Origin: Rhina ancylostomus | Lineage: Eukaryota | NCBI GenBank assembly: GCA_030265395.1 | Contig: JARFYF010000022.1 | Span: 36,814,184-36,878,183, forward strand | Direction of reading: 5' to 3' | Length of the DNA stretch: 64,000 bases | Part shown: one piece after another, positions 798-57,934 of the stretch | Position numbering within the stretch: position 1 is the first letter of the stretch | Layout of the letters: each line of letters begins with the position of its first letter | The notes under the pieces: generated by a model | Seen by the model: only the letters and a program-made list of their open reading frames with translations | Told to the model about the DNA's origin: nothing | The model's database searches: none | Made by a program: the position numbers and the translations under genes

Positions 798-1207
798 TGT
801 CATGGTTCTGAGTTCTGGCCCTCAATTTGGCTCCATTAATGCCTTGTTGTCCAGCACATGGATTCCATGCNNNNNNNNNNNNNNNNNNNNNNNNNNNNNN
901 NNNNNNNNNNNNNNNNNNNNNNNNNNNNNNNNNNNNNNNNNNNNNNNNNNNNNNNNNNNNNNNNNNNNNNCCTTTAGGTATACTTTGGTTCCAGTTGCTT
1001 AGAGTAGGTTTACTCTAGAGCAGTCCTGTGTTCTCTATTCCTTTGTGTAGATCCAGTTCGTGTTGGGATTCCTCTTCTGATCTCCGAGGCAAGATTCCTT
1101 CCAGTTACCGCCTGTGTTGGTCCTGAGGAAGTACCCTGACTCCAGTCTTGTATCAGTGTGCTGTGTTTGGGTTCTCTGTGAGTGTGCTTCAGATCAACAT
1201 TGTGACA
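798..1207 (+). mobile_element. Solo LTR (family copy 1)
   Basis: TGTCATG...GTGACA termini and 5-bp TSD AGGCC (793-797, 1208-1212). Reverse complement of copies at 6683, 10787 and 37082. Strand is the inferred LTR sense. Confidence 0.8.
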
Positions 1208-2604
1208 AGGCCTGATCCAACAACATCTGGCCCATTGTGTAATTTAGAAACAAGACATAGGGAACAAGTATACAATGCACACATAACAGATAAACCACCA
1301 TGTACAACTGACAATACATAATGAACAAAATTCAATTAGAAAATGGAACATCTGCATCAATATAGAATACACATGCAGCCCACAAAATACGTATATAAAA
1401 TTCACCATACAGAATATGTCAATACAAGTACATTTCACTTACATTAGAACAAAATTATTTCATTGAGTGAAAGGAAAACTAAATGTCCTGAAGGCTCAAA
1501 ACATCTTTATTATGGTTTTATTTTCCAATATTTGATTAAATGGAGTGGAGTGAGGTGCTATCAAAGGAACCATGGTGAATCATTTAATTTGTGGATAATG
1601 TAGCACAGTACACAGATAATTGATGAAAGGTGATGGGAATACCATTCAGACAGGTTGATCTGCCCTGGATGGCCTTGTATTCCGTGAGTGGTGGTACATC
1701 TGCATCCTCAGGCAATGAGAATGTTCTATCATATTCCTGAACTAAGTCTTGTAGATGCAGGTGGCAGTCAAAGGTTAGAGTATAAGTTATTCAGCAGTGA
1801 TAATTCAGCCGCTGATGTCCCTTTGGTACCTGGCTGCTATTACTGACAGATCAAGAAATCATCAATAAATACCTCCTCTGTTGCCCTTAGAAGTGAGGAA
1901 AGACCATCAATGATACCATTTGGGAAAGATGAACTGTGCTACTTCCATGATCAACTATATTCATGGTACAACACCATGAGCATAACAAGAAATGCGCTTA
2001 CCAACATATTCAGAATCCGTATATAAAGAAAAAAAGTTCTGACTCCTTTTACTAATGTAAAATGAGTCTACTATACTATCTTAATATCCTAGAGAAATAC
2101 AAAAAAGAACACTCTCACACCACAAAACACGTACAATACAAAATGTTCATTGAATTCCTTAAGCATGACATAATTCAGTGCACAAGATACAAAACATGCA
2201 TCAAAGAGCAACAGCTCCTCAAAGAAAAAACTACTTGTGCACTGCATGTGATGCAAACTAACACGTCCTTGCCAAGTGTTAATGATAGTAAAATCCATCT
2301 TGTATTTCTGATGACATTCAGAAACTAAAATGACTTTTCTTTTGCAGGATAACATATCATCTGAATCCCTTGATACCACCCTGCAATCCATTCCCGGGCA
2401 GTTATTAATACAGTTTTGTGTGACACTGAAATTGATATACTACAACAGTAACTGTAACGACCTCTGAAATATAGAGTCTGTGTGATTGGCACTGTGGTCC
2501 GTATAGCAGAAGTATCTGTTGGCGTGCTCAGGAGTCCCCTGGGAAACTGGCCCTCAGCTCTATTCAGCAGTAAAATTTAATCATCTCTGTCGAAAAGCAT
2601 GAAG

Positions 2605-2810: not shown

Positions 2811-3493
2811 CGTTGGGTTGTCAAATCGCCAGTCTTTCTTTCAGCCTAAAATCCGCTGCCTTTTCACAATCTTAAACTTGGCCTCAAAAATGCCCTGGAC
2901 TGGAACAGTAAAGCATCTCTATTTATGAGCAGTATTGTGTTTTTTTAGCTGGGAGTGCACCTCCATGTAGGTGCGTCTCATGAAACAACCTTCTGACAGC
3001 TGTCACGGTTTCTAGGACGGCGCACGGTGCCTGAAGGAGGCGGTGATGGTGTTTGGGGTGGTGGGGGGGGGTGGGGGTGGTGGTGGTGGGGGCGCGNNNN
3101 NNNNNNNNNNNNNNNNNNNNNNNNNNNNNNNNNNNNNNNNNNNNNNNNNNNNNNNNNNNNNNNNNNNNNNNNNNNNNNNNNNNNNNNNNNNNNNNNGGGG
3201 GTGATGGTGGCGAGGACCTGAATTCACGGCTGCGCAGCGTTGCTGCCAGCGGAGAGCAGTGAGCTCCTCCTTCCAATGCGCTGTCTTTTCTTTCTCTCGC
3301 TCGTCTCCTTCCAGCAGCGCCGGCCTCCACCGAGCCGAACAATGTAAATGCAACACCTGATCGATCAATACCGAAGCTGTGTGATCCGTTTGCTCTGGAG
3401 AGGTGGTGGTTAAACCTGAGCCCGGGGAGAAGGAGAAAGGTCGGCGTTGGGGGGAGGAAAGAGGCGGGGAGAAGGCGGAGGGGCGGCGGACAG

Positions 3494-3520
3494 ATGCCTG
3501 GCCGCTGTCCGCGGTGCTGA
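3494..3520 (+). promoter_or_regulatory. 8-codon uORF (MPGRCPRC*) in frame with, and ending directly before, ATG 3521
   Basis: ATG CCT GGC CGC TGT CCG CGG TGC TGA|ATG ATC read directly. Assumes the transcript starts upstream of 3494. Confidence 0.55.
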
Positions 3521-3521
3521 A
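3501..3521 (-). promoter_or_regulatory. RE1/NRSE (REST-binding) element overlapping the upstream ATG
   Basis: Reverse complement reads TTCAGCACCGCGGACAGCGGC versus consensus TTCAGCACCnCGGACAGnGCC; both half-sites are exact with the canonical 2-bp spacer. Confidence 0.85.
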
Positions 3522-4174
3522 TGATCAGCTCAGTGCACGTCTCCACCTCCCGCGGCAGCACACCAGGGAAGCGACCTCCCTCCGCGACATGTCTGATCGA
3601 GGAGATGGGCAAGGGCGACGACAACGATCGCATCGTGATAAACGTGGGAGGGACTAGGCACGAAACGTACCGGAGCACCCTGAAGACCCTGCCCGGCACT
3701 CGGCTGGCATGGCTCACCGAGCCCGGCGCCTTCGCCAATTTCGACTACGATCCCAAGGCGGGCGAGTTCTTCTTCGACCGCCACCCGGGGGTCTTCGCTC
3801 ACATCCTCAACTACTACCGCACGGGCAAACTGCACTGCCCGGCCGACGTGTGCGGACCCCTGTACGAGGAGGAGATCGCCTTCTGGGGCATCGATGAGAC
3901 TGACGTGGAGCCTTGCTGCTGGATGACTTACCGGCAGCACCGAGACGCCGAGGAGGCTCTGGACAGCTTCGAGTCTCCCGATCTCAACAGCGGCGATGGT
4001 GACGGCGGCGGCGGAGGAGACGGGGTCGGGGACTCGGAGGACGAGCTGGACACCAAGCGCCTCGCCCTCGGAGACTGTTCCCCTGAAGCCGGAGCGAAAG
4101 CCGGCTGGTGGAGGAAATGGCAACGCCGCATCTGGGCTCTCTTTGAAGACCCCTATTCCTCTAAATATGCACGG
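3521..4174 (+). CDS. KCNC1: Kv3.1 coding exon 1: 28-aa N-terminal extension (ATG 3521), canonical start (ATG 3605), T1/BTB tetramerisation domain
   Basis: Translation [26 protein letters not shown]...[36 protein letters not shown]...[21 protein letters not shown]...[19 protein letters not shown] and PLYEEE are Kv3.1-type; T1 Zn ligands (H, C, CC) intact. Phase-0 donor CGG|GTAAGG at 4174/4175. 3605-4174 is 570 nt, matching the mammalian exon as I recall it. Confidence 0.97.
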
Positions 4175-6682
4175 GTAAGGGAAAAATACTCAACATGGCT
4201 CTGCAGCATTTACATCTGAACTACATCTCAAGAACCTGTTGGTCAAATGAATGGGGAGGGGGAGTTCAATATCTAGAAACACCTTAAATTAATGAATGTA
4301 AGGAACAAGTTTCCATTGAATTAATATCGTTAGCAGCAAGAAACAACAGAGATTTGGGGAGGCGCGGGTGGTGTGGTTAAACTGGGAGATATGTGTGGAA
4401 GGGAGAACCAACGGTGCAAACTACATGGAGTGCTTGGGAATGCAGAATCATTGTATGAGGATTCTAGGAGAACCAGACTGCGATCCTGTACCTCCCGCTT
4501 TGGTACAGCGAAATGAGAAGATTGCAGACTGCAGCAGGTTTATGAAACCAGGTCGTGGTTGTAGCAAAACTGCGTGGACTACTAATAAATGTAACCTCAC
4601 CCGGCACATACTGTGGGTCGAGGTGTCAGATATGTGGTTCAGATGAGCGCAAAAGTCAATTTTTCAGCACCTGGTGACCTTTGCCGAGGGACTGTCTTCC
4701 TGTGGGAATTTTAAAAAAAGATACAAATATCGCGAATTGTCATTTAAATTGGTATGTTTGTTGGACGGGTTTCAAGCATCTGGGTATACTGGAAAGGGGT
4801 TCGTTTTATTTCGGAGAACTAGTCCTTCTGATCCAAGCCACGGAGATTACGCACAGCAGGAGTGCGTTTCAATTTGGGGCTCATTGATATTCCATAGGCG
4901 CACACGGTGGGTGCAGACTGCAGAGGAATCCAAGAGTCGCCACTGTAAACTCATGTCCTGGTTTTAAATACATTTGAAAAAAAATTATGGATCTCACTGA
5001 AAGGAGACAATGAATCACGACACCGTGCTTCTGTTTTTTTAGAAAGAAAAAGAAACTCGGGCTAGAAATAGCAAGACTAACACCACAATGTTTGCTGCAA
5101 AGACCCAAGCACCATTACAGTAAAAACATCCACAAGTGCCAGTGTACATTTCAGCAGTTCTACAGTTTGAGAGATTTAACGTAAAATTGCTGGTATTTAT
5201 TTATCCAGTCTTAAAGCTCCTGAGAGCCACTGTGATGAGGCCCCGGCTTTAAAACCTTTTTTTTTGTTATTGTTGTACAAGATGTTGTGATACATTAATA
5301 TCGCTGACCTCAGAAAATGAAGGCTATCGATTTGCAGATTATTTGGAGACTGATGGCAGTGTGCATGTTCCGGACAAGCACTCAAACAACTGAAACACCT
5401 TAGCTCTCAAAGAATAAAACCACTTATTTCAGATTTGATCAGAATCAGATTTCTGCTAGGGTGATATATTCAGTGCAAAATTAGTAACGGGATTAACTAA
5501 CAATGCAACCGATATTGAAGTGCCGCATCTAATTCACGTTCTCCAGCTGATGTGCTAGCACACAGAATGTTTATTTCGCTGGTTTCTGAACGAATTTAGG
5601 TACGGTTACAGGGATATGGGAGAAGGCAGAAAAACATATAGTGAAACAGATAGCATGGAAACAAACATGTATGCATATATCCTATATATCTCTAGTTATT
5701 CGCAATATTTTTACATACTACTTGTTGGATTATGTACAGCCTAGTGTCATTCCTTCTCCTTCCCATGCATAAAGGTCCATCCCGAACAAAGCAGATCAAC
5801 CCTTGTATGTGTTTGTATGGAAGGTTCGTTCACCAGAGACACTGGGATGTTTTTTCCTAGATGTCTAATGTGATTCCTTCCGTTGTTATTTCAAGGTACA
5901 GTTCCTCTCATGCATCTACCTCTCACTGCACCAGAAACATGTTTCTGCGTGTTGTTTTACTGTACTGCCTCACAGAAATCTTGGAGAAAGGCACCAAGGG
6001 GCAAGGTCGAGGGTTTCAGGAAGCAGCGAGTGTTTCCTCGATGCTCCAGCAGGTGGTACCTGGTACCTGGCACTACGTCCGATTTTCCTGAAATCTCTGC
6101 AGTGGGAAAGGCGAATAGCTGATTAAACCAGCCGCAGAACAGACAACGTCGTCGCCCAGCAGCAATTCTTTGAAGCTTGGAAGTTAACCCTTTGGTTTGA
6201 TGCATTGCTCAGACAATGATGCCAGCATTTGACCTTGAATCTAAAATAATGCGCCTGCTTGAACATTGCATAGGCCAAGAACGAGACTTGCCCTATAGAT
6301 TGTCCACAAAATGTTGCTGGAACTAGTATGGATTCTTTATCCCAAGACATTAGGAACAAATGACCTTGATGGGCAGAATGCCCAACATCAACCAGAGAGG
6401 GTTCTTTTTAGTAGCAATGTAACAGTTACCTGGGGTTAGTTAACGCAATGTTGTAGATAGCATACAGGAGGGAATGTCCATTCAGTGCGAGGAACAAAAA
6501 TAAGGGAAGAGTTTGACGATGAAGGCATAAATGATAATATGGATGGACCTCTCCAGAATCAATGTTTATAATTAATTCCACATTTAGTGAGCGCCTAAGA
6601 GCGTTTACATTGAATTGTTTTGCTGTCTGTCGCATTTTCATGGTCTTCTTATTCTTGAATGAATTCAAAATTCACTGGGGAC

Positions 6683-6784
6683 TGTCACAATGTTGATCCA
6701 GAGCAAGCTCACAGAGAACCCAAACGCAGCACACTGATACAAGACTGGAGTCAGGATACTTCCTCAGGACAAACACAGGCAGTA
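6683..6784 (-). mobile_element. Solo LTR (copy 2, other end lost in a gap)
   Basis: tgtcacaatgttgatccagagcaagctcacagagaacccaaa...gatacaagactggagtcagga is nearly identical to the start of the 10787 copy. Confidence 0.7.
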
Positions 6785-7784
6785 NNNNNNNNNNNNNNNN
6801 NNNNNNNNNNNNNNNNNNNNNNNNNNNNNNNNNNNNNNNNNNNNNNNNNNNNNNNNNNNNNNNNNNNNNNNNNNNNNNNNNNNNNNNNNNNNNNNNNNNN
6901 NNNNNNNNNNNNNNNNNNNNNNNNNNNNNNNNNNNNNNNNNNNNNNNNNNNNNNNNNNNNNNNNNNNNNNNNNNNNNNNNNNNNNNNNNNNNNNNNNNNN
7001 NNNNNNNNNNNNNNNNNNNNNNNNGGTGAAGGTGGGTTGCAGATAAGATTGGGATTGTTGGGAGAGAGGCACATTAGTTCCAACGTCATGCATGTGACTA
7101 GCCTCTCATTATTCTCAGGCCACTTAACCAAACAACTCCTTGCCACGGATGCCTCTTTAAAGGAATATTAATGTTGAAATTGGATCATGCAATAGGTCAC
7201 CTGGTATCCCTTCACCCTGGGAACCTTGGATCAAAACCAAGCAGATTTTTTGAGAGAAAAGTCAACTCTCAGCTTTGACCCTGCATAGAATTGAAGTGAC
7301 AGTCCAAGTACTGGTGCTGTTGGTGCCCAAAGCACATGGCTGATAGTAATTCTGTTCTAAAACACCAAAGTAGAGAACATTAGAGGGCAGAAATAACACC
7401 TTTTTATGTATTCATGTGGACATCACCAACAAGGCCAACATTTCTCAGCATTCCTAATTTCTTTTGAGATGGCAGTTGTGAGCCACTTTTTGAAGCAGTG
7501 CAATAGATACCATAAAGGTTCTCACACAATATTGCAGGGTAGAGTGTTCAAAGACTTTGAAACTATTACCTTTCATAATGGTATTCTCTTAAATCCATAT
7601 TGCTTACTTCTACTGTGTTTCTATTCACCATGCAATGAGTTGCCAAAAATGCACACAGTATATCAAAATAATTAAACCTCCTGTATAAATTTATGTTCTG
7701 CTTGTTGCATATTTAAGGCACAATTTATGAAACTACAGCTTCTGTTTTTATTTCTTATGATGTTTCTCTTTGCACTGACATAAA

Positions 7785-9479: not shown

Positions 9480-12300
9480 TAAAGTGTTTCCAGAACACAA
9501 GAACAGAAGAAAATAGGAGCAGGAGTAGGCCACTTGGCCCCTCAAACCTGCCCCACAATTCAATATGATCATGGCTGATCTGCACTGGCCTCAACTTCTC
9601 TCCCATGCCGGTTGCCCATAACGTTCAATTCCTCAATCTTTCATAAAATTATCGACCTGCATCTTAAATATTTTAAATACCACAACCTTCTAGAGTACAG
9701 AATTGCAGAGATTCACCACCCTCAGTGAAAAGAAATTTCTACAGACCTCCATTTTAAATGACAACCTCCTTATATTCTAATTATGTTTCTTTGTTTTTCA
9801 CTCTTCAGTGCCAACTTGTCTCCATTTTTCAAATGACTATTACTTTTATCTTTAATATCCTATTACTATGACAGTGACTTTAAATACCATTTTTCTTAGC
9901 TCAGTTTTAGCTTGTCTAATGGGGGTGTATTGATAGATTTCTTGATAATTGCCATTTTGAACAACCTCTTCCCCATGTCTACAATCATAGGTCACTTGAC
10001 CTCTCATTCCCACTCCATTATTCAGTAAAATCATGGCTTATCTTTTACCTCAGTGCCACTTTCCCACACTAATGCCATTTCTCTTGATTCCTTTAATATC
10101 CACACATTGAATCAATCTAACCATGTACTGAAAAAACTCTGCAGCTGAACCTTCATTGCACTCTTGGGTAGAAGGTTCACTACCTTCTTGAAGAAATTTC
10201 TTTTCACCTCAGTCCTCAATGGCCAATTTCTTATCTTGGGACTGTAACACCTGGTTCCAGACACTTCAGTCATGGGAAAAGTCATCCCCAAATATACTCG
10301 GTCAAGCCACATAAAAACTTTCCACGTCTAAAAAAATATAGGCTTAGTTTGAATAATCTCTCCTCACAAGAGAAACACACCATCCCAGGAATCAACCACC
10401 TAAACCTTTATTTCATTTCCTCTAAAGCAAATATATCCTCTGTTAGCTAGGGAGATCAGACATGTACAAAATCTTCCTTATTTGGCCTCAACAAAGCCCA
10501 AAATGACTGGAGCAAGACATCTTTGCTCCTCTACTCAAATCCTCATGCAATAAAAGCCAACATATTGGTTAACTTCATAATTGTTTGATATGCTTGCACA
10601 TAAGTTTTCAGTGATGCATGTACAAGGTCATGCAGGTCCCACTGAACACCAGTGTCTTTCAAACATTTATATTTAAAGACACACTTTTCTACCATAACAG
10701 ATAACATGTTTCCACATTATATTTCACCTCCCATGTCCTCACTAGTCACATTGCTTGTCCATAACCCCCTGAAGACTCTCTACCTCTGTCACAATGTTGA
10801 TCCAGAGCAAACTCACAGAGAACCCAAATGTGGCACACTGATACAAGACTGGAGTCAGGATNNNNNNNNNNNNNNNNNNNNNNNNNNNNNNNNNNNNNNN
10901 NNNNNNNNNNNNNNNNNNNNNNNNNNNNNNNNNNNNNNNNNNNNNNNNNNNNNNNNNNNNNTGGAATCCATGTGCTGGACAACAAGGCATTAATGGAGCC
11001 AAATTGAGGGCCAGAACTCAGAACCATGACAACCTCATCCTCAAATCTGCTATCAGGAAACTTAAATATTACACCGATCTAAATTGCTAACATAAACTGT
11101 GAATAGCTGGAGCCCCAATACCAATTTTCATGGCATCTCACTGGTCACAGCTACCTATTCCAAAAAAAAATCCATTTATTCCTATTATCAGTTTTCTGTC
11201 CAGTGTCAAAATTTAGTCCAAGGCAGTATATTATTGCATTCTAATGTGCTCTAACTTTGTTTAATAACCTCTTTCATGGCATCTTATAGAAATCCTTCTG
11301 AAAATCCATTGGTTCCCTTCGCCTATCCTGTTAGTCTAATAAATTTGTCACACATTCTTCCAAGTTGACTGCCCAAACCTATTTTCTAAGTGTTTGTTAC
11401 CATGACCATTGACCCTACCACTGACTGTCCAACTGGTCTGTAGACATTAACTTCCTCTCTCCCCTTTTTCTTAAAAATGAGTTACATTTGCTGCCTTTCA
11501 ATTTGGGGGTTAGGTTTTTAAGCTTTGGTTCTCCGTTTTTTAAATTCTGCTAATTTCATTCAGCTTCTGATTCACTTTAGACCTATTCTCTCCATTATCT
11601 GCAGGAGGCTGTCTGAGTCCTTTGTCGTGAAAATGGATTCAAGATATCTGTTTGATTTCTCTGCCATTTCCTCATTTTCCAGTCTAATTTCTCGTTTCTC
11701 AGAATGTAAGGGATCCACATTAACTGGACTAATCTTTTCCCTTTTAGATACCTACAGACCCATATACAGTCCGTTTTCTTGCCACTTTCTTATCAATTTC
11801 TTGGCCTTCCTTTGTTGAATTCTGAATATTTCCCCATCGTTAGGTAACCTACACTTTTTAACAACAGTATATTCCTTTTCTCTTGCTCCAACACGAGCTC
11901 ATTAGCTATGGCTAGACCATCTTTCCCATTGTTTTGTTTCATGTCTTAAAGGGATGTAAATGTTTCTTGTAAACAATATATAAAGTTAATAATTGTTGGC
12001 CATTACTTGTTTACCTTTTAATATAGTTTCCCAATATACCATAGCCTATTTATGTTTCATAGTTTGCTTTCTTTAGATTTAAGTCCCTAGATTCAAACTG
12101 AACTAAATCAATTTTAATTTTCACATAAAATTCTATCATGTTACAATCACCCTTCTCTAAAGGCCTCTTAACTCAAATAATTAATTAACCCTTTCTGATT
12201 GCACAAAATTATATCTAAAATAGCCTATTCCCTCATTGATTCAATAATGAACTGCCATATACAAAAAATCTTATCCATTCCATGAAATTGTTTTCCATGT
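9480..12300 (-). mobile_element. Degraded CR1 LINE fragments
   Basis: CR1 3'-end signature (ggagcaggagtaggccacttggccc). Minus-strand ORF 10112-10312 ...KIRNWPLRTEVKRNFF..VVNLLP resembles the CR1 ORF2 C-terminus. Confidence 0.65.
10787..11031 (-). mobile_element. Solo LTR (copy 3) inserted in a CR1 fragment
   Basis: TGTCAC...CATGACA termini and TSD ACCTC (10782-10786, 11032-11036); internal gap. Confidence 0.8.
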
Positions 12301-36215: not shown

Positions 36216-37081
36216 CACTGTCGTTCTTCCTCACTGTCAATCTCTGCCAATTTTAGTATTTCTGAAATGTGGCCCATTACAGCAATAGAGATGCATATAC
36301 AACAAAAACTAAGGAACATCACTGTCTACTGCCTTCAAGTCATTAAAGTTCTTGGCAACAATTTTTAAGCCACCGAGTCAGTTTTGAATCCAACTTGCCA
36401 ATTTACCTAGATCCCATGGACTTTTAATTTTTCTGAAAAAATTACTGAGTGTATTTTGTCAAATCCATTCAAACTGCATTTAAGGCCCTCCGTATTACCG
36501 NNNNNNNNNNNNNNNNNNNNNNNNNNNNNNNNNNNNNNNNNNNNNNNNNNNNNNNNNNNNNNNNNNNNNNNNNNNNNNNNNNNNNNNNNNNNNNNNNNNN
36601 NNNNNNNNNNNNNNNNNNNNNNNNNNNNNNNNNNNNNNNNNNNNNNNNNNNNNNNNNNNNNNNNNNNNNNNNNNNNNNNNNNNNNNNNNNNNNNNNNNNN
36701 NNNNNNNNNNNNNNNNNNNNNNNNNNNNNNCAAAGTGTATTCCTCACAGGAAGGTATCTGTAAAGACAAGAGTGTCCTCTGTTAATGCTTGCACTTTTGG
36801 GTGCTCTGCACAGCAGGCAGATGCCCATCTGGTGTGAATACAAAATTTGCATTAATCTAAACTGGAAGATTCCCCCCACTTTGCTGGTAGGAGCTCTTTG
36901 ATGACTTCTTTGATGCAGCTGGGGGCAGCAATGTGTCCTATGTAGCATAAATCAGCAGAGACAACCTGCAAGGACCTTGAGGCAAGATCTCTTCGAGTGA
37001 AGGTGACCCTGAATATCAGGCCAGTGTGGGCAATTGTGTTCACCAGACAAACCTCAAGTATCTAAACTGTCAACAGCATAC

Positions 37082-37477
37082 TGTCACAATGTCACATGAA
37101 GAGCAAGGTTGCGGAGAACCCAAATGTGGAACACTGGAACGAGACTGGAGTCGGGATGCTTCCTTGGTACCAAACGCAGAACGACGAACAGACAGAGTCC
37201 CAACACAGAAACAGGATGTTCTAGGAGAAACCACAAAACTGGGACTGCTCTACAGTTAACGGCTCTAAGCAGCCAGGAGATGAAGTATACCCAGAGATAG
37301 ACCAATAATCTGGCAATCAGTGTTTGTGAAACTAGCGTTCTTAAACTAGTCCCCTGATGGAACTCAGGTGTGTGTCATTAGGCAAACAGTAATGCATGAA
37401 AACCATGTGCAGCACAACAAGGCACCATCAATGGGGATAAGAGGCAGAACTGAGAACCAGCACTCGGAACCATGACA
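37082..37477 (-). mobile_element. Solo LTR (copy 4, complete, 396 bp, more divergent)
   Basis: TGTCAC...CATGACA termini and TSD CATAC (37077-37081, 37478-37482); collinear with the other copies. Confidence 0.8.
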
Positions 37478-47016: not shown

Positions 47017-47970
<954 letters not shown>

Positions 47971-54112: not shown

Positions 54113-54310
54113 ATTTTAAACAGAACGGTGATGCAGCAAATGCAGCATTGGCAAACGAAGATTGTCCTCATATTGACCAGGCACTGACGCCTGAAGATCA
54201 CCTCCCCTTCACTCGTTCTAACACCAGGGAGAGGAATGCCAGAGACGGGCCCTGCTTCCTCTTATCAACCGGGGAATTTGCATGTCCACCCGATGGAGGA
54301 ATAAGAAAGG
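54113..54310 (+). CDS. KCNC1: Kv3.1 coding exon 3 (Kv3.1b-type C-terminal exon)
   Basis: Not in the ORF track. tttgaag|AT acceptor, phase 1. Translates (D)[65 protein letters not shown], matching Kv3.1b [17 protein letters not shown]...[14 protein letters not shown]. Donor AAGG|GTACGT at 54310/54311. Confidence 0.95.
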
Positions 54311-56985: not shown

Positions 56986-57866
56986 TGCATGGAGATGCTT
57001 TATCAGACTGGCAATGATGTAGACTCATCATTATCCATTCTATTGTTGATCCAATGCTGTACTTTGCATTTTTCCTACATAAAGGTTTTGAAAACTCAAG
57101 GAGCCTAAGCAACAGAGCTGGCATGAGCAGAAATATACTAAAATTGCCTTCAGTGTCTTCTTCGCTCTACAGCTCTCCTTGTCCATTGAGGCTTTCTCCG
57201 TCTCCCATACCATCCATTTTATAGCATGGATTAGTAGCTGAGAATGGTCCAAAGCTTTAGTCCTACAGCCTATACTGTCTTGCATAAAACCAGGTAATAA
57301 GTCTGAAGATTGCATGTCTCTAGGTAGCACCTTGCTGCTGGTGATTCTACTGTTGACATTAGGTGGGACAATCCTTGTTGATTTCTAAATGGGATCGCAC
57401 AGGCACATGATGGCACCAGTGGTCTGTATGCTACATGTGTTTGGTGCATAGGTGGAAATAATGCAGCTACATGCAGTTCCCAATATTTGATGATCTCGCC
57501 CACTGCTTTGGGTGTGCATTTGTCCATTTGTGAAAGCACTGGCTCTTTGGAAATGGGTAACACTTATGTTTATTGGTGCACTTGGTCAACGTTTGAAGAT
57601 TTCTTTCTCAGGATCTTTTGAGCCATATGACCCTGAGGGAGTTCACACAAACATGCAGTTTGAGGTGCCATTGCATGGAAGCCAAACTGATTGCGAGCAA
57701 TACTCTTTAGAGGTCCCAGTTAATCTGGGTGCATGTGAAGGTCTTTAGAAGAAGGATACTGCCCCCTCTGCATGTAGCTATATTTTTTTTAAGCAGAAAC
57801 AAAATGCCACATTTATATTGAAGGGCAGGGGAAAGAAGGTCAAGTATTCACTGTATTCTTTGCATG
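56986..57866 (+). promoter_or_regulatory. Cluster of RBFOX-type TGCATG motifs around the alternative terminal exons
   Basis: TGCATG at 56986, 57311, 57672, 57730, 57769 and 57861. Confidence 0.55.
57085..57224 (+). CDS. KCNC1: Alternative terminal exon encoding a Kv3.2/Kv3.3-type ...SPIPSIL C-terminus
   Basis: ctttgcatttttcctacataaag|GT phase-1 acceptor compatible with exon 3. Open 46-codon frame (G)[45 protein letters not shown] aligns to the recalled Kv3.2 tail GYEKSRSLNNIAG...YNSPCPLRRSRSPIPSIL. Confidence 0.8.
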
Positions 57867-57869
57867 CAG

Positions 57870-57934
57870 ATTTCTGCAAAGGCAGCCCTGTCATTGCTAA
57901 ATATATGCAAGCAGGGGCAGTCAGAGTAACTTAA
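57870..57934 (+). CDS. KCNC1: Kv3.1b terminal coding exon
   Basis: tattctttgcatgcag|AT phase-1 acceptor. (D)[20 protein letters not shown] versus Kv3.1b [21 protein letters not shown]. TAA at 57932-57934. Confidence 0.93.

Follow-up and report, generated by a model that had tools for sequence, protein, structure and literature searches.

Among the channels of fast-spiking neurons, Kv3.1 is the standard example of one that does not inactivate, and for its paralog Kv3.3 initiation at two starts was reportedly described by Fernandez in 2003. In Kv3.4, the N-terminal inactivation (ball) peptide carries a net charge of +5 over its first 25 residues and PKC serines at S8, S9, S15 and S21, S8 being ringed by R11, R13, K14, K18 and K26, while the onset of inactivation is chiefly sensitive to electrostatics (PMC2229409; this and the following sources are cited from partial text). 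Cysteines C6 and C24 of the same peptide confer redox and hemin sensitivity, and each single mutant blunts the hemin effect; C6S, C24S and the double mutant served to follow effects of hemin on inactivation (PMC7239824). As these mutants were usable for inactivation measurements, Cys6 appears to be regulatory and not required. In Shaker, the open pore is plugged by a non-polar N-terminal end in an extended form (PMC12460158). The variable inactivation of Kv3.3 has been ascribed to initiation at both of its methionines (PMC9110028, PMC2151556), the little inactivation of the native channel being laid to second-Met initiation (PMC9110028), and mouse Kv1.7 was found to use its first ATG in spite of a weak context (PMC2151556). 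Closest to the present locus, a preprint by Jiang, Kopri, Zurnachyan and Jegla indicates in its available text that cartilaginous-fish Kv3.1 orthologs appear to have a ball (Fig. 11C), that cyclostome Kv3s have one, and that loss of the ball came early in Kv3.2 but late in Kv3.1; a rooted tree that includes Kv3 of cyclostomes and invertebrates is also reported there (bioRxiv 10.1101/2025.09.21.677649).

The window, i.e. the whole stretch of 64,000 nucleotides of Rhina ancylostomus DNA that was analysed, contains one Kv3 gene, located on the + strand, whose exons 1 and 2 join in frame to specify a 535-residue protein (an N run being rendered as X). Its features are collected in Table 1. Exon 2 contains a short N run and an internal donor after position 47938, and three additional 3' exons were located by tblastn searches that used proteins of sharks, rays and tetrapods; together with the read-through tail of exon 2, these bear out the KCNC1 tail and Kv3.1b exons recognized in the initial annotation, the ...AGAVRVT end being one that we take to be of the Kv3.1b type. 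The SPIPSIL tail (57085-57224) is also found on models of Kv3.3 and Kv3.4 from many vertebrates, as well as on one bird KCNC1 model; judged by this distribution, its exon is an ancestral Kv3 C-terminal exon common to the paralogs. Interspersed repeats resembling one another recur in the ORF list of the window (1000-1210, 6660-6800, 10870-11080 and 36990-37260).

Table 1. Coordinates of the Kv3.1 coding exons, the leader elements and the candidate Kv3.2 relic
Feature	Position	Strand	Basis or remark
Upstream ORF, 8 codons (MPGRCPRC-stop)	3494..3520	+	In frame with the channel; TGA immediately before ATG 3521; start context weak
Kv3-type N-terminal inactivation (ball) peptide, 28 codons	3521..3604	+	ORF, PDB peptide match, DNA/protein comparison
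Out-of-frame ATG, 22-codon overlapping ORF	3589..3657	+	16 bases before M29; in the Thr23/Cys24 codons
Coding exon 1 remainder: T1/BTB domain, T1-S1 linker, M29 in strong context	3605..4174	+	GT donor after 4174
Coding exon 2: S1-S6, pore, read-through to Kv3.1a tail	47017..47970	+	Stop at 47970
3' coding exon, long C-terminal isoforms	about 54113..54310	+	Boundaries inferred; tblastn and AG/GT
Alternative terminal exon, end ...SPSPIPSIL-stop	57085..57224	+	tblastn, splice sites
Alternative terminal exon, end ...AGAVRVT-stop, presumed Kv3.1b-type tail	57870..57934	+	tblastn, splice sites
Candidate relic, frameshifted, of the final nine ball codons	Kv3.2 leader L004:1464-1512, contig C29		Directly before start Met

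ATG 3521 opens a frame that contains no stop up to the exon 1 donor and reaches a second methionine (M29) at 3605, and the translation agrees with the earlier description of 28 in-frame codons ahead of the usual Kv3.1 methionine. An in-frame TGA (3518-3520) immediately adjoins this ATG on its 5' side, so that no further 5' extension of the frame is possible. When the 28-mer was compared with 177,635 PDB sequences, its sole significant match was the Kv3.4 inactivation peptide (1b4g/1b4i/1ztn; E 2.1e-5), aligned ungapped from residues 1-28 to residues 1-28, the single other row having an E of 1; identity to the Kv3.4 ball is 18/28, the same ungapped figure as first proposed. With an E cutoff of 1, a Pfam scan assigned the 28-mer to no family, and PF11601, which is precomputed on Kv3.3/Kv3.4 matches, is missing from P0001-P0004. 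At the DNA level, the 84 bases of the ball are identical without gaps to the balls of the same genome at 55/84 (Kv3.3) and 54/84 (Kv3.4) positions, as against 22/84 and 17/84, respectively, for the 84 bases located immediately 5' of the ball, and the likeness is therefore not due to chance. The PDB match and the DNA match to the genome's own paralogs thus sustain the homology to the Kv3.4 ball that had been claimed.

Which Kv3 gene carries this peptide was determined from the channel body and its neighbourhood. The first 150 residues retrieved 13 matches in the R. ancylostomus genome, of which the best four are Kv3 genes on contigs C22 (the window), C67, C53 and C29, and a query with exon 2 retrieved the same four loci. 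A tree was built on the T1-to-S6 core without the ball from 40 rows, namely the four own genes and 36 of 241 proteins chosen to span groups and lineages, and was rooted at the midpoint with no outgroup. In this tree the window gene falls in a chondrichthyan clade of sharks, rays and elephant shark (support 100/96), nearest to the ray rows, and this clade is sister to bony-vertebrate KCNC1, the joint clade being supported at 98/96. The gene on C67 groups with Kv3.3 (96/96), that on C53 with cartilaginous Kv3.4 (100/100), and that on C29 with cartilaginous Kv3.2 (100/98), no bony Kv3.2 being among the rows. A hydroxylase gene located approximately 54 kb upstream has an exon scoring 134 bits to TPH1 and 124.5 to TPH2, and a MyoD-like gene is present on the same contig at a distance of 4.4 Mb, which makes that linkage only a loose one. 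In human, the corresponding neighbourhood is MYOD1-KCNC1-TPH1. On the basis of the core tree, the four accounted Kv3 loci and the TPH1-like and MyoD-like neighbours, the window gene is the cartilaginous-fish KCNC1 orthologue. The KCNC1 identity initially assigned thus passes both phylogeny and synteny, and it is the gene on C53 that takes the KCNC4 grouping.

A separate observation concerns database names: many 'KCNC1-like' proteins of lizards, amphibians and sharks (P0050, P0109, P0186, P0192) carry a full ball and group with Kv3.3. Since databases label Kv3.3 proteins in this manner, the names are unreliable and, taken alone, wrongly suggest a ball-bearing Kv3.1 in tetrapods. Such labels, and the use of a tree with no outgroup, leave some room for the view that the window gene is a mis-assigned Kv3.3 or Kv3.4 paralog, or a Kv3.1 that acquired its ball later by conversion from one of them, but we hold this to be highly improbable. 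The 98/96 grouping with bony KCNC1, the separate Kv3.3 and Kv3.4 genes on other contigs, the TPH1-like neighbour and the Kv3.1a tail all speak against it, as does the elephant shark orthologue, which has the ball too.

Divergence within the ball bears on the same question. Identity by codon position (1/2/3, out of 28) is 20/21/14 to the own Kv3.3 ball and 20/22/12 to that of Kv3.4, and dN/dS by NG86, computed against the paralogs of the same genome because other species were represented by proteins, is 0.31/1.28 (approximately 0.24) against Kv3.3 and 0.30/1.83 (approximately 0.16) against Kv3.4, values that derive from 28 codons near saturation. Residues held in common with the two paralogs are encoded by different codons in 7/15 and 10/16 cases. 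Third positions are the least conserved and synonymous sites are near saturation against both possible donors, which points to a coding segment derived from a common ancestor and not to a recent copy. Recent gene conversion and a paralog mix-up were consequently rejected on the core tree and the synonymous divergence, and are largely refuted.

The peptide is conserved in its lineage. In 11 models from sharks and rays, each from a different named species, the ball is identical at 25-28 of 28 residues and has no indels, in line with the earlier proposal that it is kept in this lineage's Kv3.1, and most shark and ray database models already begin at M1. M29 is the start of the sole whale shark model, and exon 1 is missing from a model of Scyliorhinus torazame. 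Seven models are available for the elephant shark, of which two (older RefSeq) have the 28-residue extension, four start at M29 and one is truncated; its ball keeps C6 and C24, is alike at just 12/28 positions, and has a net charge of 0 over residues 1-25 with a single basic residue. The elephant shark RefSeq protein went from 643 aa in version.1 to 615 aa in version.2, exactly the 28 residues of the ball having been trimmed at re-annotation (P0122, P0246 versus P0243).

Loss in mammals, as suggested at first, appears to be too narrow a description. A ball motif, or more than 20 residues before T1, was found in 0/72 bony-vertebrate KCNC1-type models, which were picked from 247 proteins by the bony-KCNC1 T1 signature (HQT), are gene models with M29-equivalent starts throughout, and cover gar, reedfish, sterlet, teleosts, Xenopus, turtle, bird and rabbit, with no row named coelacanth or lungfish. 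Because these models include fishes, a loss earlier than mammals is likely, most probably in the bony-vertebrate stem. Judged by the sequences compared, the ball is ancestral to vertebrate Kv3 and is kept on cartilaginous-fish Kv3.1, as had been proposed: the own Kv3.3 and Kv3.4 genes carry it, and so do cyclostome Kv3s according to the available text of the preprint. The novelty implied for this inference does not hold, since the same statement is made there (bioRxiv 10.1101/2025.09.21.677649); at the sequence level, the ball on cartilaginous-fish Kv3.1 and the evolutionary inference drawn from it are already known.

The description of the ball as 'intact' also requires amendment. Kept with respect to Kv3.4 are the tip (MISSV-V), S8, R11, G12, the PPS ending at S21 and the TCL containing C24; replaced are C6 (by His), Y10 (by Ser), R13, K14, S15 (by Pro), K22 and K26, while position 9 is Thr in place of Ser. 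K17 is gained, and basic residues number three as against six. The net charge is accordingly +3 over residues 1-25 in place of the +5 of Kv3.4, and +1 as against +4/+5 over residues 1-28. The non-polar tip is thus preserved apart from position 6, which is His here and Gln in some species; the C6/C24 redox/heme pair is broken, C24 being kept and C6 being His, and of the PKC positions S8, T9 and S21 are present and 15 is Pro. Among 149 proteins that start with M[IL]SSV (isoforms counted), position 6 is C in 132, H in 11 and Q in 6. As both the +5 charge and C6 are missing, the peptide is best called a diverged homologue of the Kv3.4 ball. All 11 shark and ray models have His or Gln at position 6 and three basic residues; fixation of the changes across sharks and rays suggests remodelling followed by constraint, and not ongoing decay.

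How such a peptide would function can be read in more than one way. That the 28-mer works like a Kv3.4 ball seems reasonably probable from its residues, and the S6 stretch of the white shark orthologue differs from Kv3.4 at 1 of 23 positions. As counterpoints, His or Gln at position 6 makes the tip more polar, and R13, K14 and K26, which in Kv3.4 shape the critical S8 face according to the excerpted text of PMC2229409, are all replaced. Alternatively, the peptide may be translated and conserved yet non-inactivating, having been kept for trafficking, protein contact or a phosphorylation-dependent role after the loss of charge and of Cys6. Consistent with this are the low charge over residues 1-28, the single basic residue of the elephant shark version and a large early divergence from the Kv3.3/Kv3.4 ball with near-stasis thereafter in sharks and rays (dN is approximately 0.30 between the Kv3.1 ball and those of Kv3.3 and Kv3.4, and only 0.083 between the latter two). 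Yet the residues that were kept (MISSV-V, S8, R11-G12, PPS and T-C-L-x-E-E) are those expected of a working ball, and inactivation of Kv3.4 is not set by net charge alone, as stated in the accessible part of PMC2229409. We regard a non-inactivating peptide as possible, though unlikely.

At M1 the flanking bases are T (-3) and A (+4), a weak context, and at M29 they are G (-3) and G (+4), a strong one, a pattern common to all three ball-bearing genes of the genome (Kv3.1, Kv3.3 and Kv3.4). An upstream ORF abutting M1 is found in Kv3.1 only among these three (in the 400 bases before M29), and three further upstream ATGs are located 257-329 bases before M29, in the stretch 3261-3426; an N run is located a short way upstream of the leader. 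By general scanning rules, ribosomes that have translated the upstream ORF would have little chance of reinitiating at M1 and a better one at M29. Over 3261-3426, a 195-base contig of another organism, derived from a run presumed to be RNA, can be aligned with 18 differences in 166 bases; this is a hint of conservation, and perhaps of transcription, in the leader 5' of M1. Of 24 listed sequencing runs, none of which is recorded as RNA, four were aligned on 3198-3900 at 80% likeness; depth was zero over 3438-3653 in 4/4 runs, and the long contigs were less than 90% alike and look like paralogs (a record filter was applied). In one raw RNA run, 18% of which was read, just 3 reads aligned, all downstream of 3654. 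As a feature of the gene family, each of the four Kv3 genes has an out-of-frame ATG located 16-17 bases ahead of its T1 Met, which opens an overlapping ORF of 15-24 codons; this ATG could damp second-Met starts.

These features would suit an explanation in which little use is made of ATG 3521 in vivo: translation beginning at M29 would yield a standard delayed rectifier, and the 84 bases would have been retained chiefly for translational control by the leader. The upstream ORF ending right at M1, the strong M29 context, the several database models that begin at M29, the conservation of the leader itself and the second-Met starts to which PMC9110028, in the text available, lays the little inactivation of native Kv3.3 are all in its favour. 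The absence of any indel or stop in the 11 elasmobranch models and the elephant shark, the divergence biased to third positions and the common residues on different codons count against it, and the ATG of the upstream ORF is itself in a weak context; the explanation is judged distinctly improbable.

A further element of comparison is the own Kv3.2 gene (C29), which is without a ball. Read one base out of frame, the sequence just ahead of its start Met gives F-S-E-S-C-L-S-R-R, which lines up in register with P-S-K-S-C-L-K-G-D of the Kv3.3 ball. The best 17-mer is identical at 15/17 (Kv3.3), 14/17 (Kv3.1) and 13/17 (Kv3.4) positions, scores attained by 0, 2 and 21, respectively, of 31,773 background anchor points in a test designed post hoc; position-blind shuffles give weaker support, reaching the score in 25, 59 and 372 of 2000 cases by local alignment and in 70, 70 and 216 of 2000 by global alignment. 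The stretch is probably a relic, seen in one species, of a lost ball, and, speculatively, its persistence might be explained by its out-of-frame ATG, which is common to the four Kv3 genes. Neither the upstream ORF of Kv3.1 nor the Kv3.2 ball relic was found in print in a search that excluded most subscription journals.

On balance, we modestly favour the reading that the 28 codons are the ancestral Kv3 ball on Kv3.1, likely acting as a slower open-pore plug under less redox control than that of Kv3.4. Ribosomes would start both at ATG 3521 (weak, and following the upstream ORF) and at ATG 3605 (strong), and the two starts would generate tetramers in which subunits with and without the ball are mixed, as has been reported for Kv3.3. 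The non-polar tip MISSVHV would then enter the open inner pore, whose S6 lining is predicted to be nearly Kv3.4-like. From the reduced net charge a slower onset would follow, from the absence of Cys6 a weakened C6-C24 redox/heme switch, and through S8, T9 and S21 PKC could still remove inactivation. The expected current would be high-threshold with partial slow inactivation, being neither a pure delayed rectifier nor fully A-type. A more elaborate scheme, in which the upstream ORF and the weak ATG act as a translational switch setting the share of subunits with the slow, redox-blunted ball (a living intermediate), and in which the frameshifted Kv3.2 relic illustrates loss through a start shift to the second Met, is advanced tentatively and is doubtful as a whole. 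No recordings of a shark or ray Kv3.1 were found in the literature, again excluding most subscription journals. If the channel of sharks and rays does inactivate, the sustained Kv3.1 current would have arisen by domain loss in the bony-vertebrate line, and elasmobranchs would offer a natural variant, with no Cys6 and half the basic residues, that probes what a Kv3 ball requires.

In relation to known systems, the peptide resembles the Kv3.4 ball in its size and location, with 28 residues ahead of the T1 Met, in 18 of 28 residues and in C24, S8 and S21, and differs in His at position 6, Thr at 9, Ser at 10, Pro at 15, three basic residues in place of six, and a Kv3.1 body. With bony-vertebrate Kv3.1 (PDB 7phh/7pqt/8f1c) the gene has in common T1, S1-S6, the Kv3.1a tail and the alternative 3' exons, whereas gene models of the former start at the M29 equivalent in 72/72 cases. 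Its ATG contexts are like those of Kv3.3, whose weak first and strong second ATG yield forms with and without the ball (PMC9110028 and PMC2151556, as far as their available text goes), and it is unlike Kv3.3 in that the upstream ORF of Kv3.1 ends at the first ATG, none being present in the own Kv3.3 and Kv3.4 leaders (400 bases before M29). The preprint makes the same claim of an ancestral ball on cartilaginous-fish Kv3.1; in its available text, however, the recordings of the Kv3 section are of bat Kv3.1/Kv3.5 only, the Cys6 and charge changes are not discussed in that section, and the words 'Kozak' and 'start codon' do not occur (bioRxiv 10.1101/2025.09.21.677649).
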